DNA of 64,000 bases from Bifidobacterium sp. (GTDB lineage: Bacteria; Actinomycetota; Actinomycetes; Actinomycetales; Bifidobacteriaceae), in contig JAIJEI010000001.1 in assembly GCA_022739095.1 (NCBI GenBank), positions 102-64,101 on the forward strand, read 5' to 3'. Positions 19-35,384 of this stretch are shown in pieces (position 1 is the stretch's first letter; every line of letters begins with the position of its first letter). Made by a program: the position numbers and the translations under genes. The notes beneath the pieces are model-generated. The model ran no database searches. It was given only the letters and a program-made list of their open reading frames with translations, and had not been told where the DNA came from.

Positions 19-873
19 ATGACTGAGCAAATCCAGGTTGATGCTGTGAATTCTGAGGCCGTCGCAGCATTCGAAACCGCAGGTCCATCCGCGGTCTCCG
101 ACTGCAAAGGCTTCGAAGTCAAGCATCTGGTCAAGCAATACGCCAATGCGGATAAGCCTGTGCTCGACGATATCTCCTTCAAAGTGGAGCATGGCACGGT
201 GCTAGTGGTGCTCGGTCCTTCCGGTTCCGGCAAATCCACACTGCTGCGCACCATTGCCGGGCTTGAGCCGATTCAGGGTGGCACGATTTCCATCAACGAT
301 CAGGTGATCGATACCGGAAAACCCGGCACGGAACGAGCCGGACGCTCCAACCGTTCCAGCGAGCTGAGAACCCGTATCGGCATGGTGTTCCAAAGCTATG
401 ATTTGTTCCCGAACAAAACCGTGCTTGGCAACATCACCATGGCACCGGTGCTCGTGCAGAAGCGAGGCAAGGCCGAGGTGGAGGCTGAAGCAATCCGGTT
501 GCTTGGCCGTGTGGGACTTGCCGATCGCAAGGACTCCTGGCCACATGAACTGTCCGGTGGCCAGCGACAGCGCGTCGCCATCTGCCGGGCGCTGATTCTG
601 CACCCGGAAGTACTGCTGCTCGATGAGATTACGGCGGCTCTCGACCCCGAAATGGTGCGTGAGGTGCTCGACGTGGTTTTGGAGCTTGCCAAAGCCGGGC
701 AGACCATGCTTATCGTGACCCATGAAATGCAGTTCGCCCGGGCCATTGCCGACCATGTGATTCTGCTGGATGGTGGCCATATCGTCGAGGAATCACATGA
801 CGCGCACACCTTCTTCGAACACCCGCAAACCGAACGTGCGCAGCAGTTCCTGCACACCTTCGAATTCGAGTGA
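19..873 (+). CDS. Polar amino-acid ABC transporter ATP-binding protein (GlnQ/TcyC type)
   Basis: Walker A GPSGSGKST, LSGGQRQR signature, LLLDEITAALDPE; RBS GAGGTGG upstream. Confidence 0.93.
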   Translation: MTEQIQVDAVNSEAVAAFETAGPSAVSDCKGFEVKHLVKQYANADKPVLDDISFKVEHGTVLVVLGPSGSGKSTLLRTIAGLEPIQGGTISINDQVIDTGKPGTERAGRSNRSSELRTRIGMVFQSYDLFPNKTVLGNITMAPVLVQKRGKAEVEAEAIRLLGRVGLADRKDSWPHELSGGQRQRVAICRALILHPEVLLLDEITAALDPEMVREVLDVVLELAKAGQTMLIVTHEMQFARAIADHVILLDGGHIVEESHDAHTFFEHPQTERAQQFLHTFEFE

Positions 874-938
874 TTCGATTGCGCCATATCGACGTATTTG
901 AGAAAAAATATCAATAACAACAAGAGAAGGAGAACCCA

Positions 939-1841
939 ATGAGTATCAAGGTTGGGAAATCATTCAAAGCACTGATTGCCGCAGGCACGGCACTGGTAAT
1001 GGCGGCATCCATGGCCGCATGCGGTCCGTCCGCAGGCACCCCGAGCGAAGCGAAGTCCTCCGACACAGGCACCAGCTCCAGCTCCAACGCCAGGGCCCGC
1101 AGCCTCGACGAGATCAAGAAGAGCGGCAAGATCAAGATTGCCGTCTTCTCCGACAAGGCGCCATTCGGCTACGTGGACAAGGACGGCAAGTACCAGGGCT
1201 ATGACGTCTACTTCGCCGAACAGCTGGCCAAGGATCTGGGTGTGGAGCCGGAATACACGTCGGTCGACCCGGCCGCTCGTGTGGACGTGCTCACCTCCAA
1301 CAAGGTCGATCTGGTGCTAGCCAACTTCACCGTCACCGATGAGCGCAAGGAGAAGGTCGACTTCGCCAAGCCGTACATGAAGGTGGCGCTTGGTGTGGTC
1401 TCCCCGGAGAGCGCCCAGATCACCGATGTCAGCCAGCTCGACGGCAAGACCCTGATCATCGCCAAGGGCACCACCGCCGAAACCTGGTTCGAGAAGAACG
1501 CGCCGAACGTCAAGCTGCAGAAGTACGACCAGTACGCCGATGCCTACAACGCGCTGCTGGACGGCCGTGGTGACGCCTTCTCCACCGACAACACCGAGGT
1601 GCTCGCCTGGGCCAAGTCCAACAAGGGATTCAAGGTCGGTATCACCCACCTTGGTGACGACGACATCATCGCGCCCGCCGTGCAGAAGGGCAACACCGAA
1701 CTGCTGAACTTCGTGAACGACGAGATCGTCAAGCTCGGCAAAGACAACTTCTTCCACAAGGATTACGAGAAGACCTTGGCACCGGTCTACGGCAACGAAG
1801 TCAACCCCGATGACATTGTGGTAGAAGGCGGAGAGATCTGA
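939..1841 (+). CDS. Amino-acid (cysteine-type) ABC substrate-binding lipoprotein
   Basis: Lipobox MAAC; SBP family 3 motifs (DKAPFGY, GYDV, NFTVTDERKEKVDFAKPY). Confidence 0.9.
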   Translation: MSIKVGKSFKALIAAGTALVMAASMAACGPSAGTPSEAKSSDTGTSSSSNARARSLDEIKKSGKIKIAVFSDKAPFGYVDKDGKYQGYDVYFAEQLAKDLGVEPEYTSVDPAARVDVLTSNKVDLVLANFTVTDERKEKVDFAKPYMKVALGVVSPESAQITDVSQLDGKTLIIAKGTTAETWFEKNAPNVKLQKYDQYADAYNALLDGRGDAFSTDNTEVLAWAKSNKGFKVGITHLGDDDIIAPAVQKGNTELLNFVNDEIVKLGKDNFFHKDYEKTLAPVYGNEVNPDDIVVEGGEI

Positions 1842-1934: not shown

Positions 1935-1936
1935 TT

Positions 1937-2000
1937 ATACCCGTTCATAACCAACACATATAGCAACGCCGGCCTTCGGGCCGGCGTCTTGCGTTAAGGT
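1937..2000 (+). promoter_or_regulatory. Conserved ATA-N7-ATA-N9-TATA box plus -10 hexamer TAAGGT (1995)
   Basis: ATA CCCGTTC ATA ACCAACACA TATAG; same geometry at five other promoters in the window. Confidence 0.75.
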
Positions 2001-3743: not shown

Positions 3744-3977
3744 TCAGTACATGCGTTCTATGCGCATCGAAGGCCGCAGTAATCCTCCGAGCAGCATCTC
3801 AGTGAGGCGCTCCATGATTTCTTCGTCCAAGGTTGCGACTTTGACGGCGTTACGTGCTTCCGGATCAATACATTTGGCCTGTTCGATTTCTGCCCAACCG
3901 TGAATTTGTCCGCCGTTTTCAAGTGGAATAGTGCCCACGTTGACATGGAGCGGATATTCCCGATTGGTCGTGCTCAT
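3744..3977 (-). pseudogene. mazF: N-terminally truncated PemK/MazF-family toxin remnant
   Basis: MSTTNREYPLHV...GWAEIEQAKCIDPEARNAVKVATLDEEIMERL follows the C-terminal half of MazF; N-terminal RP motif and antitoxin absent; strong RBS AAGGAGG. Confidence 0.65.
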
Positions 3978-4089: not shown

Positions 4090-4878
4090 TCACACACTCC
4101 TGAATCGCGCCTGGCCGATGGTCACATCGAAGGACTTGCCGGCCGGAACGTCGTACTGCAGTTCGGTGATGCTGTTGCGCTCGCCTTGGACGAATCGCCA
4201 TGCACGGTCCTCGCCTACATTGAGATCGAAGTAGTGGCCGTTGGGCAGAGAATCATCCGTGCCTTCGGTGAGTGCCAGGTCAAACACGTCGGACCAGTGT
4301 GCGGCCACAGCGGCCGGATCAGGCACCTCGAAGAGCGCACAACGAGTGTTCACCTCGCCGATCGCATGCTGGTGCAGCAGTCCGCTTTTCTCATAACGAA
4401 CCAGCTGTTCGGATTCGCTTGCACCCCAATCGATGACGAACGGGTAGCGCAGGCCATGGTCGTCGCCCTTGATCCACAGCAGCTGCCAGCGGATTTCCTC
4501 GCCATCGGCGGTGGTGCGGTTGCCCGGCACGATCTCGCCGAGGTCAAGCCCCTTGGCGACGAGTCGTCCGGCTGCCTGCTCGATGCCATGCACATGCAGT
4601 GCTGGGCGGTAGAAGCCCACATATTCGGGCAGCAGTTCGCCGGCTTCGTGGAAGATAAGACCACGGTCCGGCGTTTCCGACAGTGCTTCCTCACGGCTGT
4701 ACAACGTCAGGAACTCGAGATAGTTGTCGGTGAAGTACGCCAGGGAGTTCTCCGTGCCGTGCCCCACATGCTTGCCGCCGTAGCGCGCGGTCAATCCCGC
4801 GCCGGCAAACGCCTGCTCGGCGGCTTTGAGGTCGTCTACGAATTCGACCGTATGATCCCACGTGAATTGTTGCGTCAT
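4090..4878 (-). CDS. VOC/glyoxalase-like family protein
   Basis: WDHTV, GGKHVGHGTENSLAYF..YLEFL, PFVIDW motifs typical of glyoxalase_3-type proteins. Confidence 0.8.
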   Translation of the reverse strand: MTQQFTWDHTVEFVDDLKAAEQAFAGAGLTARYGGKHVGHGTENSLAYFTDNYLEFLTLYSREEALSETPDRGLIFHEAGELLPEYVGFYRPALHVHGIEQAAGRLVAKGLDLGEIVPGNRTTADGEEIRWQLLWIKGDDHGLRYPFVIDWGASESEQLVRYEKSGLLHQHAIGEVNTRCALFEVPDPAAVAAHWSDVFDLALTEGTDDSLPNGHYFDLNVGEDRAWRFVQGERNSITELQYDVPAGKSFDVTIGQARFRSV

Positions 4879-4893: not shown

Positions 4894-5697
4894 TTACTTC
4901 GCGTTGCCGCCGAGTGCCGTGGTGCGTTCGACCGCTGCCAGCACCGCAGATTGTACGGATGCTGCGAACCCGGTTTTGTTCAACGTGTATGCCTCGGTGA
5001 TACCCACGCCACCGGGGGAGTTGTTGATGTTGAGCAGCACTTGCGGCAGTACGTCCTTCTGCTTGAGGAACTCGGTGCCGCCGATGATGGTATCGAGCGC
5101 GATGGCCTTGGCCACGTCGCGGGGCAGACCGGCGAGCACGCCCGCATCCACGTAGGCGTCGATGAAGTGGTAGACGATGTTCGGCGGGTAGAAGCCGGTG
5201 ATGACGTCGATAAGTCGTTCTTCGACATACAGTACCTTGCCGAAGGTGTTGAGAAATGCGTCCACATCCTCGCGCGTGGCATTCGCGTTCAGTGCCGCGC
5301 CGCTGTAGCCGTAGTCCACGGTGGTAAGTGTGTTCGGAATGATGCGTACGACGCGCCACCCATCACCAAGACTTTGTTCGAGCTTGGCGATGGTATAGCC
5401 GGCGACGATGGAGATCACCGTGGTCTTCGCCGGGTCGAAACGCTTTGCCACCGAAGCGGCCACGCCGGCGACATCATCCTGCGGGCGCACCGCGATCACC
5501 ACGATATCGGCATCTGGCGTGTCCGTCGGGGGTGTTAGTTCAGTGCCGTATGTGGTTGCCAGGAATTCGGCGCGTTCGCGTGAGATCTCCTCAACCCAAA
5601 TGTGATCGACCGGATACTCGGCGGACTTGCGTCGCACCGCCTCAATGATGGCGGTCGGCATATTGCCTCCGCCGATGAAGTACAGATTCGCTCCCAT
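4894..5697 (-). CDS. proC: Pyrroline-5-carboxylate reductase family protein
   Basis: FIGGGNM NAD(P)-binding, IAVRPQ, VISIVAG, RIIPNT, SPGG; divergent, possibly a paralog. Confidence 0.82.
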   Translation of the reverse strand: MGANLYFIGGGNMPTAIIEAVRRKSAEYPVDHIWVEEISRERAEFLATTYGTELTPPTDTPDADIVVIAVRPQDDVAGVAASVAKRFDPAKTTVISIVAGYTIAKLEQSLGDGWRVVRIIPNTLTTVDYGYSGAALNANATREDVDAFLNTFGKVLYVEERLIDVITGFYPPNIVYHFIDAYVDAGVLAGLPRDVAKAIALDTIIGGTEFLKQKDVLPQVLLNINNSPGGVGITEAYTLNKTGFAASVQSAVLAAVERTTALGGNAK

Positions 5698-6056: not shown

Positions 6057-7100
6057 ATGGCCAATCGTCGCGCCGTCTTCCATGACATCGCCACTCACAA
6101 GTCCGAAACGCCGTACCTGGTCGGTGCCTGGCAGCATCTCGTCGGCCATGAATACGGCGTCGAGGAATTCGCCAATGCCTACATCGACTTCGTCAAGCGT
6201 TGGGATTGGGAGTGGGTGAAGATCAACCCGCGCGCCGTGTACTACGCCGAGGCTTGGGGTTCTCGCTACGACCGCAACGATTATGCCGGATTCGTGCTGC
6301 CGAAGAAGATCAGCGCCGCGATCACCGAACCGGATGACGTGCGCAAGATCAAGGAATTCAACGCTCCCGACAATGAGTACTTCGCCGAGGCCCTCGCCGC
6401 GGCCGCGCTCATCCGTCAGGGTCTTGAGGATCGTGCCGTGCTGCAGACCATCTTCTCGCCGCTGTCCGTGCTGCTGCAGATTGCCGATCTGCCGCTCTAC
6501 CCGGGCGACGATTACGCCACCGCGACGCTCACCGTCGAAGACGTGATCTTCAACCAACCTGAGGTTGCCAAGCTTGCGCTCGCCAATATCGCCCACACGC
6601 TTGCCTCCTACGCGCGTGCGCTGGTCCGTCCCGAATCCGAAGGCGGCGCCGGGCTCGACGGTGTGTTCTATGCGGTCACCGGCACGGTGAGCGAGGACTA
6701 TTTCGACGCGCAGCGTTACCTTGAATTCTCCGGACCGTACGACCGTATCGTGATCGACGCTGTGCACCGCGCCAACCCGGACGCCGTGGTGCTGCTGCAC
6801 ACCTGTCGCGCCGAATCCCATCCGAACTGGTTCGACACGACGGGCGTGGACCTGCTGCAGTGGGATCAGTACCAGCCGGGCAACCCGAAGGCGGACGCCG
6901 ACCTGACGGCCGCGCCGGTCGCTGGTGCCCCGTACGACCTGTTCACGCCGAATGGCGATGTCGAGCAGGTGCGTCGCGAACTGGCCGAGACCATCAAGTT
7001 GCGTGAAGGCAAACCGTTCCTGCTGGCACCGAGCTGCACGGTGCCGACTCCGGCAAGCGATGAGGTGCTGCAGGCGCTGAGCGACGCCCGCGTGGCCTGA
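6057..7100 (+). CDS. Uroporphyrinogen decarboxylase/MtaA-CmuA-like TIM-barrel protein (paralog 1)
   Basis: QTIFSPLSV, GAGLDGVFY, PYDRIV, LLHTC, FLLAPSCT; no RQAGR motif of true HemE; start set by RBS GAAGGGA. Confidence 0.8.
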   Translation: MANRRAVFHDIATHKSETPYLVGAWQHLVGHEYGVEEFANAYIDFVKRWDWEWVKINPRAVYYAEAWGSRYDRNDYAGFVLPKKISAAITEPDDVRKIKEFNAPDNEYFAEALAAAALIRQGLEDRAVLQTIFSPLSVLLQIADLPLYPGDDYATATLTVEDVIFNQPEVAKLALANIAHTLASYARALVRPESEGGAGLDGVFYAVTGTVSEDYFDAQRYLEFSGPYDRIVIDAVHRANPDAVVLLHTCRAESHPNWFDTTGVDLLQWDQYQPGNPKADADLTAAPVAGAPYDLFTPNGDVEQVRRELAETIKLREGKPFLLAPSCTVPTPASDEVLQALSDARVA

Positions 7101-7165: not shown

Positions 7166-8335
7166 ATGACCATCAAAACAACCATCCGCACCGCGGTTGC
7201 GGCCGCGGTCACCGTGGGAACGCTGATCGGCGTCTCCGCATGCGGCCTTGGCGGAGACTCCACCAGCGGCTCCGGCAGCTCCGGCGACACCGTGAACATC
7301 GGCGTCATCTACCCGAAGACCGGCCAGTACGCCGAATACGGCAAGCTGTTCCAGCAGGGCTTCGATCTGGCTGTCGCCAAGGTGAACAAGGACGGTGGCG
7401 TCAAGGGCAAGAAGCTGGGCCTCAAGTACTATGACACCCAGTCCGATGCCAAGCAGGACGCCGCCGTTGCCCCCAAGCTCGTGGCAGACAAGTCGATCAT
7501 CGCCGTGGTCGGCGATTACGCCTCGCCCGCCTCCTCGGCCGCTTCGCCCATTTTCCAGCAGGCCGGACTGGTGCACTACGGCTTCAACAACTCCGCACCG
7601 ACCTTCACCGACACCGGTGACCACGTGTGGACCCCGCAGATCGGCCAGGACAAGTACCAGAAGGCCAATGCGGATATCGTGGCCAAGAAGGCCAAGAAGA
7701 TCTCCGTGGTCTACATCGAGAACGATTGGGGCAAGCAGGCCTACCAGTACTTCAAACAGGAAGCCGAAAAGAACGGTACCCAAATCGTGTACGAGTCCAG
7801 CTACCTGCCCGACTCCACCGACCTGTCTCCGATCCTGATTCCGGCGCGCGATGCCAAGCCCGACGCGGTGGTCGATATCGGCTACGGCCCGGACGGCGCT
7901 CTGGTGATCAACACGCTGCGCGACAAGCTGGGTTACACCGGCCCGTACTTCGGCGGCCAGGAAACCAAGGAATTCCTTGACCTCGCCGGCAAGAACGCCG
8001 AGGGCTCGATTATCACCGGTTCATTCTCCGCCACCGGCACCAAGGATGCCAAGGCCCAGCAGTTCGTCAAGGACTTCAAGGCCAAGTACGGCAACAACCC
8101 GGGCAACTTCGAAGTGACCGCCTACCAGGCGATCATCGATCTCGCCTATGCGGCCAACAAGACCGAACCGACTCGTGAAGGCATCCAGAAGGCGTTGCAG
8201 ACCGTAACCGACTTCCCGCTCTATCAGGGCAACGGCGGCACGTTCAAGTTCAACCAGAAGGACCGTCGCGCCGACAACATCGATCCGATTCTGCTCATCG
8301 CCAAGGATGGCAAGTTCGAACAATACGAAGTCTGA
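7166..8335 (+). CDS. Branched-chain-amino-acid-type ABC substrate-binding lipoprotein (LivJ/K-like)
   Basis: Lipobox VSAC; IGVIYPKTG, NKDGGVKGKKL, AVVGDYAS. Confidence 0.9.
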   Translation: MTIKTTIRTAVAAAVTVGTLIGVSACGLGGDSTSGSGSSGDTVNIGVIYPKTGQYAEYGKLFQQGFDLAVAKVNKDGGVKGKKLGLKYYDTQSDAKQDAAVAPKLVADKSIIAVVGDYASPASSAASPIFQQAGLVHYGFNNSAPTFTDTGDHVWTPQIGQDKYQKANADIVAKKAKKISVVYIENDWGKQAYQYFKQEAEKNGTQIVYESSYLPDSTDLSPILIPARDAKPDAVVDIGYGPDGALVINTLRDKLGYTGPYFGGQETKEFLDLAGKNAEGSIITGSFSATGTKDAKAQQFVKDFKAKYGNNPGNFEVTAYQAIIDLAYAANKTEPTREGIQKALQTVTDFPLYQGNGGTFKFNQKDRRADNIDPILLIAKDGKFEQYEV

Positions 8336-8455
8336 TTTCCGCGGCTTTCCCGTGCTCCGCCGACGCTCCTGCCCTACGGTTCCACCGTATAGGGCCGGGG
8401 GCGTCGGCGAGGTATGGAAGAGGCATCGTAAATCGCAAATGAGGTAACACGCACA

Positions 8456-10270
8456 ATGTTTGATGTTCTTTTCGCCGGACTGATTCACGGCAGCGCCTAC
8501 GCGCTGGTCGCGGTCGGCATGTCGCTGATCTTCGGCGTCACCAACGTGGCCAACTTCGCCCAAGGCTCCATCGTGGCCGTGGGCATGATGATTGCCTGGT
8601 GGCTCGGCTCAACACTGGGATGGGGCATCGTGCCCACATTCGTGGTCGTGGTCGTAGTCACCGCGCTGCTGGGCCTGGTCATGAACGTGGCGGTCATCGC
8701 CCCGCTCGAGGGCCGCAAGCCGATCGCGGCGCTGCTCGCCACCATCGGCGTCGGGCAGGTACTCGACAATGGCCTGCAGATCATTTTCGGGCCGCAGACC
8801 CGCCCGTTCCCGAAACTGCTGGACACCTATAACCTGCAGTTCGCCGGCGTGCGCTTCGGCACCTCGGACATTGTGATGGTGGTGCTCGCTGTCGTCTCGA
8901 TGCTTGGCTTGTGGGCGTTCCTCAAATTCGGCAAGGCCGGGCAAGCCATTCGCTTCACTTCTCAGGATCCCGAGGCCGCCATGCAGATGGGCATCCCGGT
9001 CAAGACCATCCGCAATCTCTCCTTTGTGATCGGTTCCGTGCTCGCCGGCGTCTCCGGTATTTTCGTGGGCCTGTTCAACGGCAACATCAACCCGATGAAC
9101 GGCGGCACCATCGGCATGACCGCATTCGTAGCGGCCACAATCGGTGGTCTGGGATCCATTCCGGGCGCCGTGGTCGGTGGCCTTGTGCTCGGTGTGGTCG
9201 AAGCGTTCGGCATCTCCCTGTTCGGAGACGGTACGCATGATCTCATCACCTTCGGTGCGCTGATCATCATCCTCATCATCAAACCGCAGGGCCTGCTCGG
9301 ACCGAAGACCGACGTGAGGTCCGAACCGCTCACCGGCACGTTCCTCGGTGGTGGCCGGGCGATCACGCTGCCATGGTGGGGTAACCTTATCGGCGCGGTG
9401 ATGCTCGTCGCCACCCCGTTCTTCTTCAACGACTACCTGTCCGGCGTGGGTACGCAGGTCGCCATCTACGCCATAGCCGCTGTGGGGCTGACGTTGATTT
9501 CCGGTTCCGCCGGCCAGACGATTCTCGGCATGGCCGGACCGTTTGCCGTCGGCTCCTATGCCTCCGCGATTCTGACCACTCAGGCGCACTGGCCATTCCT
9601 CGCGGCCTTGCTTGCCGCCGGCGTGATCGCGGCCTTCGCCGCCTCCGTGCTCACCTTCCCGGTGTGGAAGCTCTCCGGCCACTATGTTGCCATCGCCACC
9701 ATCGGCGTAGGCGCGGTGATGGTGGCCATCATCCGCCTTGCAGAGCCATTGACCAAGGGCTCGCTCGGCATCCAGGGCATTCCATTCCCGAAGGTGTTTG
9801 GCTTCACGCTGTACACGCAGCAGATGATGTATCTGCTTGATGTGATCGTGCTGCTCATCACGCTGGTGATCGTCACATGTATTCGCGCCACGCATCTGGG
9901 CCGTGTGTTCGAGGCCGTGGGTGCCGATCGTGAGGCTTCGGAGGCGTTGTCGATTCGCACCGGTGCCTACAAGGCACTCGCTTACGCATTGGCCGCGTTC
10001 TTCGCCGGTCTCGCCGGTTCGCTGCTCGCCCATCAATACACTTACATCGATCCGACGATTTTCAACTCGAATATGTCGATCCTGATTCTGACCATCATCG
10101 TGCTTGGCGGCATGAACTCACCGCTCGGCGCGGTGCTCGGCTCAATCGTGCTCATCGGCGCACCCGAGCTGCTGCGATTCGCCACCGATGCCCGCATCCT
10201 GCTGTACGGCGTACTGCTGGTGCTCGTCATCCTGTTCCGTCCTCAGGGCCTGTTCGCCCGGAAAGGCTGA
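8456..10270 (+). CDS. Fused LivH-LivM ABC permease
   Basis: YALVAVGMSLIFGVTNVANFAQG (LivH half), then LTLISGSAGQ and IIVLGGMNS (LivM half). Confidence 0.9.
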   Translation: MFDVLFAGLIHGSAYALVAVGMSLIFGVTNVANFAQGSIVAVGMMIAWWLGSTLGWGIVPTFVVVVVVTALLGLVMNVAVIAPLEGRKPIAALLATIGVGQVLDNGLQIIFGPQTRPFPKLLDTYNLQFAGVRFGTSDIVMVVLAVVSMLGLWAFLKFGKAGQAIRFTSQDPEAAMQMGIPVKTIRNLSFVIGSVLAGVSGIFVGLFNGNINPMNGGTIGMTAFVAATIGGLGSIPGAVVGGLVLGVVEAFGISLFGDGTHDLITFGALIIILIIKPQGLLGPKTDVRSEPLTGTFLGGGRAITLPWWGNLIGAVMLVATPFFFNDYLSGVGTQVAIYAIAAVGLTLISGSAGQTILGMAGPFAVGSYASAILTTQAHWPFLAALLAAGVIAAFAASVLTFPVWKLSGHYVAIATIGVGAVMVAIIRLAEPLTKGSLGIQGIPFPKVFGFTLYTQQMMYLLDVIVLLITLVIVTCIRATHLGRVFEAVGADREASEALSIRTGAYKALAYALAAFFAGLAGSLLAHQYTYIDPTIFNSNMSILILTIIVLGGMNSPLGAVLGSIVLIGAPELLRFATDARILLYGVLLVLVILFRPQGLFARKG

Positions 10271-10276
10271 TTTGCC

Positions 10277-12861: not shown

Positions 12862-12914
12862 CAGTGGCAATCAAGTATTGCAAGTATTGCCGATACCCTT
12901 CCCGAGGAGGTACA

Positions 12915-22354: not shown

Positions 22355-22411
22355 GCGCAGACGGTCGGGAATGGGCGAACGAGATAGACGACTGAGTCAA
22401 GACAGGAACGA

Positions 22412-24690: not shown

Positions 24691-24777
24691 TCGACCGATG
24701 AATGCGGGGGCCGATGTCCTTGTCTTGCCACCGCTCATCGAACGCCATATGGCGCACCTCATACGCATGCCGCGCAT

Positions 24778-24841
24778 ATAGCGTTCTATAGGTAACTCGT
24801 ATAGCCACGCCGGTCCGCCGTCGACGACTTCGCACTAGGGT
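24778..24841 (+). promoter_or_regulatory. ATA-N7-ATA-N9-TATA box plus -10 TAGGGT (24836)
   Basis: ATA GCGTTCT ATA GGTAACTCG TATAGCCACGCCGG. Confidence 0.75.
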
Positions 24842-24906
24842 GGGCGAATGACGATGCGATCGGCGAGACCACAACGCGGACCGCAGACAGGAGGAGGAAG
24901 GCCCGG

Positions 24907-25665
24907 ATGATCCAGATCAGATCGGTGAGCAAGAGCTTCAACGGCACCAGGGTGCTGGACGGGCTCGACCTCGACATCCCGCGTCAGAATGTGGTCACGG
25001 TGATCGGGCCGTCCGGCTCCGGCAAGTCCACGCTGCTGCGTATTCTGGACTTCCTTGAGCAGGCCGATTCCGGCACCGTCGACTTCGGCGACGGTCCGGT
25101 GGACCTGACCACCACCAACACCGCCGACATCCGCAAGGTGCGTTCGAAGATCGGGTTCGTGTTCCAGAACTACAACCTGTTCCTCAACAAAAATGCCCTG
25201 CAGAACGTGGCCGAGGGGCTGATCTACTCGCGCGGCGTCAAGCCGGAACAGGCGCGCAAGATTGCCCTCGAACAGCTTGACCGGGTCGGTCTGGCGGACT
25301 TTGCCGACCGGTACCCGAGCACGCTATCCGGTGGCCAGCAGCAGCGCGTGGGTATCGCCCGCGCCGTGGCGCTCAACCCGGAACTGCTGGTGCTCGACGA
25401 GCCGACCTCCGCCCTGGACCCGGAAATGGTCACCGGTGTGCTTGAGGTCATCAAGCAGCTGGGCCGGGACGGCATGACCATGCTTATGGTCACCCACGAG
25501 ATGCGCTTCGCCTACGAGGCGTCGAGCAGCGTGGTGTTCATCGAAGGCGGGCACGTGGTCGAGCAGGGAGATCCCAAGCAGATCTTCGAGCACCCTACGC
25601 AGCAGCGAACTGCGGAGTTCCTGTCGTCCACCAACAACGTGCTGATGATTCCGGCGGCCGCCTGA
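24907..25665 (+). CDS. Cystine-type ABC ATP-binding protein (TcyC-like)
   Basis: GPSGSGKST, FQNYNLF, LSGGQQQRVGIARA, DEPTSALDPE. Confidence 0.92.
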   Translation: MIQIRSVSKSFNGTRVLDGLDLDIPRQNVVTVIGPSGSGKSTLLRILDFLEQADSGTVDFGDGPVDLTTTNTADIRKVRSKIGFVFQNYNLFLNKNALQNVAEGLIYSRGVKPEQARKIALEQLDRVGLADFADRYPSTLSGGQQQRVGIARAVALNPELLVLDEPTSALDPEMVTGVLEVIKQLGRDGMTMLMVTHEMRFAYEASSSVVFIEGGHVVEQGDPKQIFEHPTQQRTAEFLSSTNNVLMIPAAA

Positions 25666-25783
25666 CGATCCGATGAGGCGGCAGGCGTGCCCAGCGGCAT
25701 CGCCGTCGCCATCGGCATTGCATCCAAGATTTTCCCTAATAGATCAACCAATGAGAGACCAACCAAGAGAGGGGTTTGTCATC

Positions 25784-26629
25784 ATGTCCAATACCCATGG
25801 AGTGTTCCGCAAGGCCGTGGCCCTGCTGTCCGGCGTAGCCGTGCTGTTTTCGCTGGCCGCGTGCGGCTCGTCGTCCGCCGGCGATTCCGGCTCGTCCGCC
25901 TCCGGCAAGACCTCGACCAGCGCGCTGGAGCAGGTCAAGTCCGCTGGCAAGATCGTGTTCGCCACCGAAGGCACCTACGCGCCGTTCAGCTACCACGATT
26001 CCAAGACCAACGAACTGACCGGCTACGACGTGGAGGTGGCCACCGCCATCGCCAAGGAGATCGGCGTCAAGGCCGAGTTCGCCGAGGGCAGCTTCGACTC
26101 GCTGCTCGCCGGCGTGGACGCCAAGAAGTACGACACGGTCGCCGACCAGATCAGCGCCACCGACGAGCGCAAGGCCAAGTACGACTTCACCGAGCCGTAC
26201 ACCTACTCGTACGGCGTGGTCGTGACCACCAAGGACAACCCGAAGGGCGTCAAGTCCTTCGAGGAAGTCAAAGGCCTGAAGGCCGCCGAAACCGGCACCA
26301 GCAACTGGAACAAGACCGCCCAGGAGAAGGGCGCCGAAATCGTGCAGGTCAACGACTTCGGCCAGGCCGTCGAGGCCCTGCAGTCCGGCCGTGCCGACGT
26401 GACCCTCAACGACGGTCTCGCCGTGCTCGACTACCTCAAGCAGAAGCCGGACGCGAACATCAAGATCGCCGCCAAGTCCGAGAAGACGCCGGCCGCCCAG
26501 CTGCCGTTTCGCAAGGGCGGCGACGACCTAGTCAAGGTCGTGAACGACGCCATCGCGAAGCTGCAGAAGGACGGCACCCTGACCAAGATTTCCGAGAAGT
26601 ACTTCGGCGAGGACTTCTCACAGGAGTGA
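25784..26629 (+). CDS. Cystine-binding lipoprotein (TcyA/FliY-like)
   Basis: Lipobox LAAC; ATEGTYAPFSYHD, GYDVEV, ERKAKYDF. Confidence 0.9.
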   Translation: MSNTHGVFRKAVALLSGVAVLFSLAACGSSSAGDSGSSASGKTSTSALEQVKSAGKIVFATEGTYAPFSYHDSKTNELTGYDVEVATAIAKEIGVKAEFAEGSFDSLLAGVDAKKYDTVADQISATDERKAKYDFTEPYTYSYGVVVTTKDNPKGVKSFEEVKGLKAAETGTSNWNKTAQEKGAEIVQVNDFGQAVEALQSGRADVTLNDGLAVLDYLKQKPDANIKIAAKSEKTPAAQLPFRKGGDDLVKVVNDAIAKLQKDGTLTKISEKYFGEDFSQE

Positions 26630-26692
26630 CGGCCGCCGTATCAGGTACCGTAACAACGCAATAACCGCATCACACAGGCAAAGGACAAGGCA

Positions 26693-27355
26693 ATGGACGC
26701 ACGGGTATGGTCGATAGTGGTGGATTCCTTCGGCAAGCTCCTTATTCCGGGACTTACCGTGACCATCCCGCTCACCCTGATCTCATTCGCCCTCGGCCTG
26801 CTGCTGGCGATCATCGTCGCGCTGATCCGCGTGGCCAAAGTGCCGGTCGCGGCGCAGATCGCCTGGGTGTACGTGTGGGTGTTCCGAGGCACACCTCTGC
26901 TGGTGCAGCTATTCGTGATCTTCTTCGGCCTGCCCTCCATCGGCATCACGATTCCCGCGCTGCCGTCCGCCGTGATCGCGTTCTCGCTCAACGTGGGTGC
27001 GTACGCTTCGGAAACGTTGCGCGGCGCGATTTTGGCCGTGCCGAAAGGCCAGCTTGAGGCCGGATACGCGGTCAACATGCCGTACGTGACGATCATGCGG
27101 CGCATTGTGCTGCCGCAGGCGTTCCGTTCGGCCTTCCCCGCACTGTTCAACACGTTCATCGGACTGGTCAAGGACACGTCGCTGGCCGCCAACATCACCG
27201 TGGTGGAGATGTTCATGGCCGCCCAGCGCGTGGTGGCCGTCTACTACGAGCCGCTGGTACTGTATATCGAGGTGGGCCTGATCTACCTGCTATTCAGCAC
27301 GGTGCTCACCTGGCTGCAGCAGTACTGCGAGAAGAAACTCAACGCGCACTTCTGA
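26693..27355 (+). CDS. Cystine-type ABC permease (TcyB-like)
   Basis: FRGTPLLVQLF, LNVGAYASETLRGA, LVKDTSLA. Confidence 0.9.
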   Translation: MDARVWSIVVDSFGKLLIPGLTVTIPLTLISFALGLLLAIIVALIRVAKVPVAAQIAWVYVWVFRGTPLLVQLFVIFFGLPSIGITIPALPSAVIAFSLNVGAYASETLRGAILAVPKGQLEAGYAVNMPYVTIMRRIVLPQAFRSAFPALFNTFIGLVKDTSLAANITVVEMFMAAQRVVAVYYEPLVLYIEVGLIYLLFSTVLTWLQQYCEKKLNAHF

Positions 27356-27429
27356 TGGGTTTCATCACTCACGACAAAGTTCGTGACGACGATGAACCAT
27401 AACGAGCAATTACGATCAAAGGAGCAAAC

Positions 27430-27678
27430 ATGGCCATTGACGTGTACGGAGCCAGCTGGTGTGGCGATTGCCACCGTGCCAAGGCCGCGCTGAACGATCT
27501 CGGCGCCGCATTCAACTGGCACGACATCGAAACCGAGGAAGGCGCGGCGGACCGCGCGGTCGCCATCAGCGGCCAGAAGCACATCCCCGTCGTCCTTTAC
27601 TCGGACGGCGCCTTCCAGGTCGAACCCTCCGCGCTCGACATCAAGAACAAGCTTGAGGCTCTGGGCGAGCTGAAGTAG
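27430..27678 (+). CDS. Glutaredoxin/mycoredoxin-like protein (paralog 2)
   Basis: YGASWCGDC; aligns end to end with 3459-3710; RBS AAAGGAG. Confidence 0.88.
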   Translation: MAIDVYGASWCGDCHRAKAALNDLGAAFNWHDIETEEGAADRAVAISGQKHIPVVLYSDGAFQVEPSALDIKNKLEALGELK

Positions 27679-28109: not shown

Positions 28110-28164
28110 GGGGATGCTGTTCTTCGGACTTGGACCCCACAAAACGACTGAAAAACGTGAAGCC

Positions 28165-28228
28165 ATAGCTTCGTATAAACGAACGATATAACAACACCGG
28201 TCAGACTGCAATCATTTTGCGTTAAGGT
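28165..28228 (+). promoter_or_regulatory. ATA-N7-ATA-N9-TATA box plus -10 TAAGGT (28223)
   Basis: ATA GCTTCGT ATA AACGAACGA TATAACAACACCGG; TTGCGTTAAGGTCG shared with the 1995 promoter. Confidence 0.78.
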
Positions 28229-28376
28229 CGGGAAACGGAACGCGAGAGGAACGAATGCGCGACATCAGACTTCCGCGTCATCTTGACTGGCAATCAGTCA
28301 TCGGACGAATCGGTGTGATTCCACAATGATCAGTTCCGGTGAGACATGATTGCGTTCACGCAACAAGAGGGGAAAC

Positions 28377-30122
28377 ATGGCAATATCAACCAAGCCGCAG
28401 CTTATTGCCCGCGGCATTAAAGCATTGGCGGTGACACTCGTCGCCGCCACCGTGCTCGCAGGATGCGGTGCGGCCGGCAATTCCAAGAACAACAGTGCCA
28501 CTCAATCTTCGGGTAACGTGCAGGCCATCAAGAACGAGACGATAAAGGCTACGGACCCGTCCAAGAGCCCGGCCAACGCCAACAAGCGTACCGACACGTT
28601 CGTTGCCGCCATCAAGAACCCAGGTGGCGTGTTCCTGCCGTACTTCTACCGCAACGCATGGGATGAGAACATCAATCAGCCGATTTTCGCCGCATTGGTC
28701 GTCTATGACAAGGACGGCAACCCCGTGGGCGATCTGGCCAAATCGTGGGAAGTGTCTAAAGACAACCTCACCTACACCTACCATCTTCGCGACAGCGCGA
28801 AGTTCTCTGATGGAACTCCAGTGACCGCCGACGATGTGGCTTTCACGCTGACCCTTGAAAATGACCCGGCCTACAACTTCGGCCTCGCCGACTTTACCGA
28901 CATCGGCATCAAGGGTGTTGCGGATTACCAATCCGGCAAGGCCGATTCGATTTCCGGCATCAAGGTCGTGGATGACAAGACCGTTTCCGTCACCACCGAA
29001 AAAGTCAACCCTGTGGCGCTAACCACCATCGGCAGCTACGTGCTGTCCAAGAAGTACTACGGCAAGGACTACCAGCGCGGCAAGCTCTATTACCTGCAGC
29101 AGTTCTACGACAAGCCACTGGGTGCCGGTCCCTACGAGCTCGACAAGTACGTGCCCGGCCAGGAAGTGCGATACAAGGCGAATCCGAACTATTATGGCGG
29201 CAAGCCAAAGATCGAACACCTAATCTTCAAGGTCGTCACCGATGACACGGCGCTCCAGTCCTACCAGAATGGCGATACCGATACCGACGTGTTCATTCCG
29301 GATTCCGATGTGCTGTCCCAGCTCAAGGACTTCGGTTGGTCGGATGTGAACATCCGTACCAATCCGTACTACTCCTATTCCGAGTTCAACACCAAGAAGC
29401 CATACCTAACCAAGGAAGTGCGTCAGGCGCTGTACTACGGCCTCGATCGCAAGCAGATTGTCGCCGCTTGGTACAAGGGCTACGGCGAAGTGGCCAATGT
29501 ATACGCTCCGCCGAGCAACTGGGCATACTCCACCAAGGGCGTGAACACCTACGAATACAATCCCGACAAGGCCAACGAGCTTCTGGACAAGGCTGGTTGG
29601 AAGAAGGGCCCCGACAGCATTCGTGAGAAGGACGGCAAGAAGCTCAGCCTGGTCTACGTGACCAAGGACCAGACCGACCCGATCATCAGCATCGGCAAGG
29701 AACAGTGGAAGAAGATCGGCGTCGACCTGCAGGCCACGGTCACCGATCAGAACACGGAGACCACGCGGTTGAAGTCCGGTGACTACGATTTGATTACCTT
29801 CCGTACCTCGGTCATCAACGATCCGTATGAAGCGGTCAAGCCATTCGGTACCACTGACCCGCAGGTCAATGATAACGGCTACGACAATGCCACGGTTCGT
29901 AAGCTGGTCAAGGAAAGCATCGCCAAGTCCGACCGCGCCAGCCGTGAGCCGATTTATCAGAAGATCTATCAGGAACTCAGCAACGATCCGCCGTATCTGC
30001 TCATTGGATACATCAAGGGCTTCAATGCCTGGAACGATCGTATTCAGAATGGTGACAAGTTCTTCCGCGGAACCGGTGACTCGGCGATTCAGCTGGCAAA
30101 GCTGTCCATCAAGAACCAGTGA
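28377..30122 (+). CDS. Opp/Dpp-family ABC substrate-binding lipoprotein
   Basis: Lipobox LAGC; LAKSWEVS, FSDGTPVTADDV, GAGPY, VRQALYYGLDR. Confidence 0.9.
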   Translation: MAISTKPQLIARGIKALAVTLVAATVLAGCGAAGNSKNNSATQSSGNVQAIKNETIKATDPSKSPANANKRTDTFVAAIKNPGGVFLPYFYRNAWDENINQPIFAALVVYDKDGNPVGDLAKSWEVSKDNLTYTYHLRDSAKFSDGTPVTADDVAFTLTLENDPAYNFGLADFTDIGIKGVADYQSGKADSISGIKVVDDKTVSVTTEKVNPVALTTIGSYVLSKKYYGKDYQRGKLYYLQQFYDKPLGAGPYELDKYVPGQEVRYKANPNYYGGKPKIEHLIFKVVTDDTALQSYQNGDTDTDVFIPDSDVLSQLKDFGWSDVNIRTNPYYSYSEFNTKKPYLTKEVRQALYYGLDRKQIVAAWYKGYGEVANVYAPPSNWAYSTKGVNTYEYNPDKANELLDKAGWKKGPDSIREKDGKKLSLVYVTKDQTDPIISIGKEQWKKIGVDLQATVTDQNTETTRLKSGDYDLITFRTSVINDPYEAVKPFGTTDPQVNDNGYDNATVRKLVKESIAKSDRASREPIYQKIYQELSNDPPYLLIGYIKGFNAWNDRIQNGDKFFRGTGDSAIQLAKLSIKNQ

Positions 30123-30250
30123 CGACATTCCACACGAGATGACGCCTCGCGGCATGGACCCAATAGGTCTGTGTCACGAGGCGTCTCGCCGTGCAGAGTG
30201 ACATCCCGCCTTCCACCCAAACCCCCACTAGGCATAAGGCTCATTAATCC

Positions 30251-31228
30251 ATGCTACGTTACACGCTCCAACGTTTTCTGCTGATGATACCCACCCTCAT
30301 CGGCGTATCCATACTGGTCTTCGCGCTGTTCGCGATGATGCCAGGTGATTTCTTCTCCGGAGACACCAAACTCACCCAGGTGCGACTCGACCAATTGCGT
30401 GAGGCCTATGGCCTCAACAAGCCGGTTCTGGAACGTTACTTCTTGTGGGTAAGTCAACTGCTGCATGGTGACTGGGGTTTCTCCATGCAATACAACCAGC
30501 CGGTATCCAAGGTCATCGGCACCTATATCTGGAACTCGTTCCTCGTGTCGTTCGGGGCATTCATCATCGCGTGGGCCTTGGCCATCGCGGTGAGCATCTA
30601 TTCCGCCCGCCACAAGTATTCACTGTTTGACCGCATAATCACTTTCGTCGTGTTTGCGGTGATGTCGCTGCCATCGTTCTTCGTGGGCTTGGTGCTTATC
30701 AAGACTTTCTCCATCAATCTCGGCATCATGCCGGTCGGCGGACTGATCACCATCGGATCCATCTACACGGGAGCACGGTATTGGTTCGATGTACTGCACC
30801 ATGCCATCCTGCCGATGCTGGTGATCGTATGCGTGAACTTCGGCCCGTTGACCCGTTACTTCCGCACCAGCATGCTGGATACCCTGAGTATGGACTTCAT
30901 TCGTACTGCCAGAGCAAAAGGATTGCCCGAATCACAGGTCATCTACAAGCACGCGTTGAAAAACGCGATGCTGCCGGCGATTACCCTGCTGGGATTCCGT
31001 TTGCCGGCCCTGTTCTCGGGCGCGATCATCACCGAGCAGGTGTCCAGCTGGCCGGGTATCGGACGCATCCAATTCGAATCGGTGACCACCCGTGACTATG
31101 CGTTGCTGATGTCCATTACCATGCTGCTGGCCATTCTGACGGTTGTGGGCAATTTCATCGCCGACGTTTTGTACACGATGGCCGATCCTCGTGTACGTAT
31201 CACGCGAGCAAAGGGGAGTGCCAAGTGA
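30251..31228 (+). CDS. OppB-like permease
   Basis: MPGD, GLNKP, FIRTARAKGL, DPRV. Confidence 0.9.
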   Translation: MLRYTLQRFLLMIPTLIGVSILVFALFAMMPGDFFSGDTKLTQVRLDQLREAYGLNKPVLERYFLWVSQLLHGDWGFSMQYNQPVSKVIGTYIWNSFLVSFGAFIIAWALAIAVSIYSARHKYSLFDRIITFVVFAVMSLPSFFVGLVLIKTFSINLGIMPVGGLITIGSIYTGARYWFDVLHHAILPMLVIVCVNFGPLTRYFRTSMLDTLSMDFIRTARAKGLPESQVIYKHALKNAMLPAITLLGFRLPALFSGAIITEQVSSWPGIGRIQFESVTTRDYALLMSITMLLAILTVVGNFIADVLYTMADPRVRITRAKGSAK

Positions 31229-32175
31229 GCGTTCGACTGCCATTCGCATCCCGCAAAACCAATGCCGAACGGGATGAAAAACTCGCTCGGGATACGACTT
31301 GCGCCGGTGGCTCGCTGTGGCGTGACGCGATGCGTTCGTTCCTGCACAACCGGTCCGCGATCATCGCATTGACCATCTTGGCGATTATCGTGCTGATCAG
31401 CTATGTCGGTCCTCTGCTCTCTCCCTACGGGTTCGAGGATTACGACGTGATGAACATCAAGCAGGGGCCGAGTCTGGCTCATCTGCTTGGCACCGACAAT
31501 TATGGTCGAGACGTATTCACCCGTGTGATGTACGCCGGCCGAATCTCCATTGCTATCGGTCTGATTTCGATGATTGTCTCAGTGGTATTCGGCGCGGTAT
31601 TGGGTGTCGTATCCGGCTACTTCGGCGGCTGGGTGGACGGCATTATCATGCGCATTGCTGATATCGTGCTGTCCATTCCGAGCATGCCGCTTATGTTCAT
31701 CATCGCGGCCCTGCTCAGCGCCTTCAAAGTGCCCAATGACGCCAAGGTGTATTTCGTGGTCATCATGCTGAGCTTTGTCGGATGGCCGAGCATTGCTCGT
31801 ATGATTCGAGGACAGGTGCTTTCCATCCGTGAGCGGATGTATGTGCGGGCCGCAGATGTACTCGGTCTGGGCCTGGGCTCCAAATTGTTCCGACACATAC
31901 TGCCGAACACGTATCCGATTCTTATCGTTGAAGCCACGCTGGCCACCGCCAACGGCATCATGAACGAATCCGCCTTGAGCTTCCTTGGCCTCGGTGTCAT
32001 GCAGCCGACGCCTTCCTGGGGCAACATGATTTCGGCGGCCAACAACCTCATCGATTTCCAGATGCATCCTTGGCTATGGATCTCGCCTGGTATCGCGGTG
32101 TTCGCCACGGTCATCGCCATCAACACCATTGGCGACAGGTTGCGCGACGCTTTCGACCCCAAACAGTATTCGTGA
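31225..32175 (+). CDS. OppC-like permease
   Basis: HLLGTDNYGRD, RHILPN, PSWG, GDRLRDAFDP. Confidence 0.9.
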   Translation: MSVRLPFASRKTNAERDEKLARDTTCAGGSLWRDAMRSFLHNRSAIIALTILAIIVLISYVGPLLSPYGFEDYDVMNIKQGPSLAHLLGTDNYGRDVFTRVMYAGRISIAIGLISMIVSVVFGAVLGVVSGYFGGWVDGIIMRIADIVLSIPSMPLMFIIAALLSAFKVPNDAKVYFVVIMLSFVGWPSIARMIRGQVLSIRERMYVRAADVLGLGLGSKLFRHILPNTYPILIVEATLATANGIMNESALSFLGLGVMQPTPSWGNMISAANNLIDFQMHPWLWISPGIAVFATVIAINTIGDRLRDAFDPKQYS

Positions 32176-32254
32176 CATGTGGTCGAATAATCCGAATCAT
32201 GCGGTCATGCACCACGGTGCAGGTAACACGTGCAGGTAACACGAGGGAACATTT

Positions 32255-34090
32255 ATGAGCATTATAGTATCAAACAAAACAGCACATAAAGAGGACAAAG
32301 TCGATGATTCCGATGACATCGTACTTGGTGTGCGCCACCTGAAAACATACTTTTATCCGGATGACGGCTCCGTACGCAAAGCCGTGGATAACATCAGCTT
32401 TGACGTTCGCCGAGGACGCGTGTGCTGTTTGATCGGCGAATCCGGTTCCGGGAAAAGCGCCACGGCCATGTCTTTGATCAATCTGATCGATCGGCCCGGC
32501 CGCATCGAATCCGGCGAAGTGCTGTTCGAAGGGCGTGATCTGCTGACCTTGGATGTCAAGCAGATGCGCGAGGTGCGAGGTGCCGATATCGGGCTCATCT
32601 TCCAGGAACCGATGCATTCCCTTGACCCGGTGTTCACCATTGGCGACCAGCTTGTTGAAACCATTCTGGCCCATGCCGATGTTCCCCGTCCGGAAGCCGA
32701 GACACAGGCGATTGCATGGCTCAAACGTGTCGAACTGCCGAACCCCGAACTCATCATGACGGCCTACCCGCATGAGTTGAGCGGTGGCATGCTGCAACGA
32801 GCGATGATTGCCATCGCCTTGTGCTGCGAGCCCCGCCTGCTTATCGCCGATGAACCGACCACGGCATTGGACGTTACCGTGCAGGCTCAGATTCTGCGTC
32901 TGTTGGTCCGACTCAAGAACGAAATCGGATTGTCGGTGCTGTTCATTACCCACGATTTGGGCGTGGTGGCCGAAATCGTGGATGACGTACTGGTCATGTA
33001 TGACGGTCATATCGTGGAACGCAACACGGTGGAGAACATCTTCGACCATCCCAAGCATCCATATACCAAGGCCTTGTTGTTGACCCGACCCATCATCGGG
33101 CAAAAACTCAAGCGGTTGCCCACTTTGCATGAGGTCATGCGGGAAGTGGATGACGGTGAAATCACCCAGCCACAGGACTGGAGCACCTTGGCCACCACCG
33201 TGGAAGACGATTCGATTGCCGAGGTGGGTGAACGCTCCCGGTCCGGCACTGACGATTCATGCCAGACTAAGGAGCATCAGGGCCAGCCTATTCTTCACGT
33301 AAGCCATCTGAAGAAATACTACGAACGGGTGCATGGTTTCGGCTTGCGTGGCAACAATGTGAAAAAGGCCGTGGACGATGCCAGCTTCGACGTGTATCGC
33401 GGCGAAACGGTCGGCCTGGTGGGGGAGTCAGGCAGCGGCAAAACCACTACCGGACAGACGGTGCTGCGTCTCGATGCCAAAACCGATGGTGAGGTGCTGT
33501 TCGGCGGCGAGGATATCTTCTCGCTCAGCAATACCAAACTGGCCCGAATGCGCACCCGCATGCAGTACGTGTTCCAAGACCCATACAGTGCGCTTAACCC
33601 AAGGCTGAAGATCGGCTCGGCCATCGGAGAGGCGTTGCTGCATCACAAGCTGGCCACGAAACGTGACGTCACCGATAAGGTGGTGGAAACGCTGGAACTG
33701 TGCGGCATGGACTCCTCCTGCCTCAATCGGTACCCGCAAGAGTTTTCGGGCGGTCAGCGACAGCGCATCGTCATCGCCCGTGCCATGGCCTTGCAGCCGG
33801 AGTTTGTGGTGGCTGACGAACCGGTGTCCGCCTTGGACGTATCCATCCAGGCAGAGATCATCAACCTGTTCAGCGAACTGCAACATACTCGTGATGTATC
33901 GTTCCTGTTCATCTCCCATGACCTAAGTGTGGTGGAGCATATCTGCTCGTCGATTCTGGTCATGCATAATGGGCGGATTGTGGAATCCGGTTCGGTGCAT
34001 GACGTATTCGACCATCCCCAGGATGAGTACACCAAGAGTCTGTTGGATTCGATTCCCGCAAGCCACCCCAAATACCGCACGATCGCCTGA
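32255..34090 (+). CDS. Fused OppD/OppF ATP-binding protein
   Basis: Two GESGSGK Walker A motifs; LSGGMLQR and FSGGQRQR. Confidence 0.9.
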
Positions 34091-34202
34091 ATTGGCGGGT
34101 GGTATAGATTTTTCGTATGCGGGTGGGGGCGTGGCCTGTGCCGGAACGTGGTGGTATGGGTGCAGGGCATCCATGCTGAACATCAAAGACGGGGGAAACA
34201 AT

Positions 34203-35384
34203 ATGACGAACACTGAACTGCAGCGTCAGCTGGAAACGTACTACACGTGGTTCCATCAGCATCCCGAGCCGGCGTATCAGGAGACCGAAACCACGGCGCA
34301 CATCAAGGAGATCCTGGATGAACATGGCATCGAGATTCTGGACAGCGGGCTGAAGACCGGGCTCATCGCCATTATTCGGGGCGAGGGCGAGTCCGCGGGT
34401 GTCGGCCATGTGGTGGCGGTGCGTGGGGACATCGATGTGCTGCCCATCCTGGAACAGACCGGCGTGCCGTACGAGTCGCTGAACAAGGGCTATCTACACG
34501 GCTGCGGGCATGACTACAACCTGACCGTCGCGCTAGGTGCTGCACTACTGCTGAACGAGCGCAAGGCGGACTTCACCGGCGAGGTCAAGGTGATCTTCCA
34601 GCCGGCCGAGGAGCTGGCCGCCACCAAGGAGGTGCCCACCGGCGCGGTCACCGTAATCAACACGGGAGCCCTGGACGATGTCGAGGCGTTTTTCGGCACG
34701 CATGACACCAACCAGGGCGAGCCCGGCACCGCGTTCATCTCCGCCGGGCCGGACAGCGGCGCGGTCGACAAATACCGCATCACCGTGCATGGGCGAGGCA
34801 GCCATGCCGCTCATCCCAACGGCGGGGCCAACCCGATTCGCGTGGCCGCCGCACTCATCGAAGGCATCCAGTCGATCGCCGGGCAGGACGTGGACCCGGT
34901 GCATCCCCGCGTCGCCACCGTCACGCATGTGGAGGCGGGCAGCACCTGGAATGTGATTCCGGCGACGGCCTTCCTCGAAGGCACCGCGCGCACCGCATTC
35001 CCCGAAGACCGCACGCTGATCCACGACCGGCTGCAGGCCATCGTGCAGGGCACCGCCGCGGCATACGGCGTCACCGCGGACTTCGCATGGGAGTACGGCT
35101 CGCCGTCGGTCGTCAACGATGCCGATTGGTCGGCTCTGTTCGCCGCCACGGCCAGCGAGCTGGGACTGGACGTCCGGCCATCGCAGCCATCGCTCGGCGG
35201 CGAGGATTTCTCGTACTACCTCGCCAAGGCGCCGGGCGCATTCGTCCATCTCGGCGTCGGCAACGGCGACCGGCCGATGCACGGGCCCACGTTCTATGCC
35301 AAGCTCGACGCCATCGCCACCGGTGCGGATGCGCTGGCCACCACGGCGCAACGTGCGCTCGCACGGCTGGGCGAGGTCAGGTAG
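34203..35384 (+). CDS. M20D amidohydrolase (YxeP/SndA-like), paralog 2
   Basis: FHQHPE, HGCGHD, FQPAEE, GGEDFSYY; shares the PTGAV segment with 12915-14123. Confidence 0.88.
   Translation: MTNTELQRQLETYYTWFHQHPEPAYQETETTAHIKEILDEHGIEILDSGLKTGLIAIIRGEGESAGVGHVVAVRGDIDVLPILEQTGVPYESLNKGYLHGCGHDYNLTVALGAALLLNERKADFTGEVKVIFQPAEELAATKEVPTGAVTVINTGALDDVEAFFGTHDTNQGEPGTAFISAGPDSGAVDKYRITVHGRGSHAAHPNGGANPIRVAAALIEGIQSIAGQDVDPVHPRVATVTHVEAGSTWNVIPATAFLEGTARTAFPEDRTLIHDRLQAIVQGTAAAYGVTADFAWEYGSPSVVNDADWSALFAATASELGLDVRPSQPSLGGEDFSYYLAKAPGAFVHLGVGNGDRPMHGPTFYAKLDAIATGADALATTAQRALARLGEVR

Follow-up and report, generated by a model that had tools for sequence, protein, structure and literature searches.

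A conserved pair of a UroD-like gene and a Liv-type importer in Bifidobacterium, with a possible role in oxygen-independent salvage of cysteine adducts

Conserved core and gene content of the locus

This study examined 64,000 nucleotides of a Bifidobacterium sp. genome (GenBank assembly GCA_022739095.1, contig JAIJEI010000001.1), hereafter the window, which makes up most of contig C78 of a source genome that is 81% complete and 2.1 Mb long. Its first 35 kb carry amino-acid importers, sulfur-enzyme genes and two genes of the UroD/MtaA fold, UroD1 and UroD2; our main subject is UroD1 with the Liv-type importer encoded next to it (Table 1). The nearest named homologues of the window's proteins are Bifidobacterium proteins, and the locus belongs to Bifidobacterium on this comparison. 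By record, the sequencing runs that contain half or more of the words of 4-13 kb come mostly from metagenomes of gut, feces, bovine gut and digesters, and no RNA run is listed among those containing window words.

Two collections were used, namely 151 Bifidobacterium genomes and, for neighbourhood counts, 58 related loci. A UroD1 match was present in 30 of the 151 genomes (three partial), and a UroD-like gene in all 22 Bifidobacterium genomes with the LivJ clade of the window. Among the neighbours in the 58 loci, LivJ recurred in 51 and a cystathionine gamma/beta-lyase-like (CGL) or MetY-like gene in 33, followed by SDR (14), M20 (8), ProC-like (8), VOC (7) and TcyK-type importer (1) genes, with no redoxin gene in any. 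On these counts, the conserved core is the UroD-like gene and the Liv-type importer.

The domain scan covered 66 translated open reading frames (54 plus 12, some repeated). All five ATP-binding cassette (ABC) importers listed in the initial annotation of this DNA (CjaA-like, Liv, TcyK-like, TcyA-like and Opp) have open frames, the permeases of the first lying upstream of the window and likely starting on contig C146. The two pyridoxal phosphate (PLP) C-S enzymes and the SDR, VOC and ProC-like proteins that it named are all there, and no monooxygenase or GNAT N-acetyltransferase was found among the 66 translations, as it had said. Its duplicated M20D, CGDC redoxin and UroD/MtaA-fold genes are also present, but not as recent duplicates: the pairs are 56%, 74% and 45% identical, respectively, which points to separately acquired modules. 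All the gene types in its inventory were found; a decayed insert and a PemK-like remnant had been overlooked. No Pfam match to a 2SL-type lyase was seen in the window, a genome-wide search for 2SL not having been made, and an Rfam scan returned one tRNA only and no riboswitch.

The closest relative, G076, whose UroD1 is 88% identical, keeps the CjaA-like importer, CGL, the redoxins, VOC, ProC-like, UroD1, Liv, the first M20D gene (M20a), MetY and the TcyA-like importer. It is without the SDR, the decayed insert, the TcyK-like importer with UroD2, and Opp with the second M20D gene (M20b); no match was found to window 15.6-24.9 kb, to 27.7-35.5 kb (except a paralogous M20 piece) or to the SDR. 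Because G076 keeps some modules and lacks others, the 35 kb is, on sequence comparison, a mosaic of modules and not a single pathway.

The decayed insert, at about 16.2-19.1 kb (16163-19099), has a lower GC content than its surroundings (46-51% per open reading frame). It holds an M24 peptidase gene that a 36-bp direct repeat (16196-16231, 16266-16301) interrupts close to its start, a frameshifted and truncated binding protein gene, and a PotA-like ATPase gene with no permease, and a sulfur-type promoter motif still stands ahead of it at 15957. After the PotA-like gene lies a 65-bp near-perfect inverted repeat (19156-19219). Further on, at 36482-40424, a lower-GC AAA/DUF4143 gene that is absent in G076 is followed by an ABC exporter gene region; its identity to G076 is 99%, against 93-95% in the flanks, which suggests a recent transfer.

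Table 1. Features of the locus by position in the window
Positions	Strand	Feature	Remark
19..1841	+	ABC ATPase and CjaA-like cysteine-type binding protein	structure matches 1xt8, 2yjp
1936..1967	+	shared promoter motif YATA-N7-ATA-N9-TATARC, copy ahead of CGL-like gene	leave-one-out 31 bits
2064..3296	+	CGL-like PLP enzyme	best NF005810, below cut-off; 40% identical to a CGL-like gene elsewhere in the genome
3459..3710	+	CGDC redoxin 1	TIGR02200, above cut-off
3744..3977	-	PemK/MazF-like remnant between redoxin and VOC genes; not seen in G076	
4090..4878	-	VOC (Glyoxalase_3) protein, accessory module	domain match
4894..5697	-	ProC-like NAD(P)H oxidoreductase, divergent paralogue; predicted thiazolidine-carboxylate dehydrogenase	below TIGR00112 cut-off
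6057..7100	+	UroD1, MtaA-fold, predicted zinc site His248-x-Cys250...Cys327, invariant His27/Lys55; core enzyme	
7166..12109	+	Liv-type (HAAT) importer: binding protein, fused permease, fused ATPase; core partner of UroD1	
12106..12861	+	SDR oxidoreductase, accessory	14/58 related loci
12858..14123	+	M20a, YxeP/ScmP-like M20D amidohydrolase; predicted N-acyl-cysteine deacylase; start probably downstream of 12858	1ysj E 5e-90
14297..15592	+	MetY-like sulfhydrylase (Cys/Met PLP enzyme), second paralogue	
15957..19099	+	motif copy, then decayed lower-GC insert	
19901..23113	+	TcyK-like polar amino acid importer: ATPase, binding protein, two permeases	Lmo2349 4gvo, YtmK 2o1m, E about 1e-19
23238..24269	+	UroD2, second predicted-zinc MtaA-fold family member, same motif residues as UroD1	
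24777..27678	+	motif copy, TcyA-like cystine-type importer (24907-27355), CGDC redoxin 2	2yln E 2e-61
28164..35384	+	motif copy, Opp-type importer (28377-34090), M20b (likely start 34200)	

A UroD-like protein with predicted zinc ligands

UroD1 was recognised as a UroD-type barrel by a fold test. In the sequence alignment it keeps the zinc-thiolate ligands of MtaA (the MT2-A methylcobamide:CoM methyltransferase) and MetE, so that zinc binding is predicted. It differs from MtaA and the MetE C-terminal barrel in its low identity (16%), in the additional invariant His27 and Lys55, in being encoded with amino-acid importers, and in that no corrinoid protein was found: PF02310 is absent from the 81%-complete source genome and was not matched above the cut-off in any of five near-complete relatives, one of which gave a sub-cut-off match.

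The N-terminal (M/F)RQAGR motif binds the substrate in UroD, and it is missing from all 80 and all 29 aligned family rows, while the His/Cys/Cys ligands occupy positions where UroD has other residues. UroD (HemE) is not a metalloenzyme (PMC539065). On the missing motif and the zinc-site residues, UroD1 is not a uroporphyrinogen decarboxylase; it probably acts on C-S bonds without B12 and belongs to a family that is uncharacterised. That family comprises at least 144 clusters at 50% identity (E up to 1e-30) annotated as uroporphyrinogen decarboxylase, and in a protein cluster atlas its members fall only in URO-D-labelled clusters. A literature search, outside which most subscription papers and supplements lay, found no study of the enzyme family, the locus or the motif.

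The family reaches lactic acid bacteria, Lachnospiraceae and Proteobacteria, and neither the ProC-like nor the UroD-like gene was found in 400 other Actinomycetes genomes searched. Among six plasmid loci read, one (a distant member) lies after metQNI, one ahead of a TcyK-like importer and two ahead of TTT importers, one of these also with Rid and a Cds1-like desulfhydrase; the other two are uninformative. A Gemmobacter operon (L114, 9037-15707) holds a family member, a TTT importer, Rid, a Cds1-like desulfhydrase and an opine dehydrogenase. LivJ has no close relative of solved structure, and its nearest outside relatives, which are aerobic, sit in sulfur-acquisition clusters with flavin oxidoreductases. 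Four records titled Senegalimassilia, Dysosmobacter, Acidaminococcaceae or 'bacterium' (L064, L067, L068, L085) contain near-identical copies that group with Bifidobacterium, their titles being probably wrong.

A promoter motif shared with other sulfur genes

Intergenic DNA in the window carries a triple-ATA motif ahead of CGL, the M24 insert, the TcyA-like importer and OppA. These four sites, from which the strict pattern was derived, are its only occurrences in 2.1 Mb. With a loose pattern there were 15 matches in the genome, six of them in the window, the other nine including sites ahead of metY and metA. A matrix built from the window sites alone found four held-out matches scoring 20 bits or more, where three shuffles gave 0-2: ahead of a YbaK-like tRNA-editing gene (C6, 668-1222), metA (C197, 4465-5499) and an amino-acid permease (C146, 3-566), and one by a sugar importer (C210). 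The metY site (C87, 8831-10147) was found with the loose pattern but is not among the top 40 weight-matrix matches. Leave-one-out analysis supported four of the five window sites; the site at 19694 ahead of the TcyK-like ATPase (5.7 bits, with 1379 equal or better sites) was not counted.

With four own-genome sites added, the matrix gave 46 matches of at least 15 bits in 950,500 bases from 61 related loci, against 1-3 in five shuffles. Twelve of them lie ahead of UroD1 homologues, 10 ahead of MetY and 6 ahead of CGL, several of the loci being near-copies, and in G076 a site precedes the first permease of the CjaA-like importer. No motif was found ahead of the genes on metE's contig, cbs-cgl or metQ. 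The motif is likely regulatory, and its sites likely outline a bifidobacterial cysteine regulon.

The spacing of the motif appears LysR-like. A LysR gene near the UroD-like gene in locus L092 is 57% identical to a LysR gene on contig C136, the latter being a candidate regulator. In S. mutans, tcyD (SMU.932) is a putative UroD-like gene. The HomR-regulated tcyDEFGH genes of S. mutans, as described in the available text of PMC5131005, PMC13661357 and PMC10473590, likewise combine a LysR-controlled cystine-type importer with an extra gene.

Salvage of cysteine adducts and competing explanations

Three binding proteins of the locus are closest to cysteine or cystine receptors, and their ligands are predicted accordingly from the matches. 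The CjaA-like protein at 939 matches 1xt8 (E 4e-83) and 2yjp (E 2e-78), and the TcyA-like and TcyK-like proteins, at 25787 and 20680, match the entries given in Table 1; we take these entries, for which the search gave generic titles, to be cysteine, cystine and TcyK receptors. The best match of M20a is YxeP, which deacetylates N-acetylcysteine according to the available part of PMC12757645. The oxygen-independent scavenging of organic sulfur put forward in the initial annotation is supported by these cysteine-type binding proteins, the YxeP-like M20a, the motif common to metA and metY, and the conserved zinc-thiolate ligands.

From the gene content, linkage, motif, fold and conserved ligands observed here we infer the substrate of the predicted zinc enzyme. 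We give about an even chance to the proposal that the Liv importer and the MtaA-fold protein import a cysteine adduct and break its C-S bond without oxygen, B12 or prior acetylation. The Liv-type importer would bring in the adduct, zinc would hold the sulfur of cysteine (or homocysteine) as a thiolate, and His27 and Lys55 would bind or activate the remaining substrate, with ring opening or elimination freeing the thiol. The CGL-like and MetY-like enzymes would pass sulfur from cysteine to homocysteine and methionine, while supply and reduction of ordinary cysteine, cystine and peptides would fall to the CjaA-, TcyA- and TcyK-like importers, Opp and the redoxins.

The favoured substrates would be cysteine-carbonyl adducts, i.e., thiazolidine-4-carboxylates. 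Available text describes E. coli ProC as oxidising thioproline (PMC12899673), thiazolidines as going via thiazolines and N-formyl- or N-acetyl-cysteine to cysteine, and MT4C as supporting growth of Entamoeba (both PMC4222106). The ProC-like protein of the window scores 159.7 bits, below the TIGR00112 equivalog cut-off of 196.75, and is 28% identical to a ProC-like gene elsewhere in the genome. The ProC-like and VOC genes share one distribution, six of the 151 genomes, and adjoin UroD1 in each. ProC-like and M20 genes are co-located in 7 of 8 loci (hypergeometric 2e-7, a value overstated by kinship), and on a quick tree the pattern needs five changes, at least three of them forced. This pairing would fit cysteine-aldehyde thiazolidines oxidised to N-acyl-cysteine. 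The accessory ProC-like enzyme would oxidise the rings to thiazolines, which would be opened to N-formyl- or N-acetyl-cysteine, possibly with help from the VOC protein; the YxeP-like M20 would then deacylate these, and the SDR would reduce the released carbonyls. Such oxidation would explain a deacylase without an acetyltransferase, of which none was found in the window or among the recurrent neighbours of the 58 loci, the singletons not all being annotated. In the available text of PMC12899673, bioRxiv 10.1101/2020.03.19.981027 and PMC4222106, oxidation of thiazolidine-4-carboxylate to cysteine by ProC/PutA is a side activity of proline enzymes; the window likewise has a ProC-family enzyme with a predicted N-acyl-cysteine deacylase, but would have a dedicated, importer-linked module. 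The fuller picture is somewhat unlikely: a dedicated salvage of cysteine that aldehydes, keto acids or sugars have bound in thiazolidines, combining a new B12-independent zinc thiazolidine/thioether lyase family mislabelled UroD in bifidobacteria, lactic acid bacteria and Proteobacteria, an oxidative ProC-like/VOC/M20 branch by way of N-acyl-cysteine, and an undescribed bifidobacterial cysteine regulon.

Several observations weigh against salvage by a zinc lyase. To our knowledge, all characterised MtaA/MetE-type zinc sites carry out alkyl transfer, not lysis (that of EaCoMT being reversible). The promoter of the window's own UroD1 reaches only 13 bits, and the MetY-like paralogue is present in 76 of the 151 genomes, so its adjacency is weak evidence. 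The ProC/VOC/M20 module accompanies just 7-8 of the 58 loci. On Rahnella/Pantoea plasmids (L214, 8487-12798; L215, 4145-12801), a Liv importer, VOC, GntR, M20 and a ProC-like gene (44-46%) occur with no zinc enzyme; their LivJ and VOC are not detectably close to those of the window, and their M20 is 33-34% identical. VOC homologues lie in mixed contexts (Amadori genes, an ATC-hydrolase-family gene, acyl-CoA ligase clusters) and were therefore not used as support. A soil clade of the family (80 loci, L119-L198), placed behind a two-component system and before NUDIX and MEDS genes, showed no match to the window's sulfur genes in any of the 80 loci and likely has a different role. Finally, 8 of the 58 loci, from Propionibacteriaceae and kin, have a KPN_01858-type LLM monooxygenase gene in divergent orientation, often with Avi_7169/7170 genes.

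An unlikely alternative is that the zinc enzyme is a B12-independent homocysteine S-methyl(alkyl)transferase. As a non-homologous counterpart of MmuM, it would take the alkyl group from an imported onium compound, for example S-methylmethionine, and CGL and MetY would provide its homocysteine. The ligand pattern is that of the MetE/MtaA thiol alkyltransferases (PMC539065), and one distant family member follows metQNI. None of the eight genomes with PF02574 was found among the 30 with the zinc family, but this anticorrelation is not significant (P 0.16), and replacement of MmuM was dropped as evidence. Moreover, MetE is present in the genome anyway, Proteobacterial members pair with TTT carboxylate importers and a cysteine desulfhydrase, and the ProC/M20 module is left unexplained.

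It is quite unlikely that cysteine/cystine importers and transsulfuration genes simply cluster here in an ordinary hot spot, with the zinc protein and Liv serving a substrate that is unrelated or contains no sulfur, or carrying sulfide or metal. The modular structure of the block, the soil clade lacking a sulfur context and the LivJ without a close solved relative would fit this, whereas the motif stands ahead of the UroD1 homologue in 12 relatives, the zinc-thiolate ligands are conserved, and sulfur neighbours recur in three phyla.

The initial annotation had modelled the locus on the B. subtilis snaA-tcyJKLMN-cmoOIJ-sndA and scmK(yxeK)-scmL-yxeMNO-scmP operons, which work by acetylation, cleavage and deacetylation in the available text of PMC10221552, PMC9706529 and PMC12757645. 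Like them, the window has a TcyK-like importer and a YxeP-like M20D and would serve to recover cysteine from adducts, but it shows no acetyltransferase, monooxygenase or 2SL-type lyase; its core importer is Liv-type, and its M20 is accessory and tied to the ProC-like gene. The redoxins of the window are TIGR02200-type. PF00296 is absent from the 81%-complete source genome, and one of five relatives has it. A direct anaerobic counterpart, with an unlinked GNAT acetylating S-alkyl-cysteines (or with import of host mercapturates) before cleavage by the zinc enzyme and deacetylation by M20, is very unlikely. It would fit the TcyK-like binding protein, the YxeP-like M20 and the flavin oxidoreductases beside aerobic Liv relatives, and the oxygen-independent yxe variant with a 2SL lyase already described in PMC9706529, as far as its available text goes, shows that the cleavage step is exchangeable. 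Against it, M20 and the redoxin recur in few or none of the related loci, the five genomic GNAT genes have no upstream motif above 8 bits (one weak match in the 58 loci), and the Propionibacteriaceae keep the LLM monooxygenase and the zinc enzyme together, which argues against plain replacement of the monooxygenase.

The aim of cysteine salvage is known from sna/yxe, and the central enzyme family is uncharacterised. Bifidobacteria need organic sulfur, and its acquisition in the gut is described as poorly known in the available text of PMC7817509. If salvage by the predicted zinc lyase is correct, the MetE/MtaA fold would have a new use, and cysteine would be recovered from adducts of diet or host by a new route that needs no oxygen. 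The locus points to a UroD-annotated enzyme family that can be tested, with a predicted thiolate-activating zinc motif and no B12 partner found, and its promoter motif offers a handle on the sulfur regulon of the genus.

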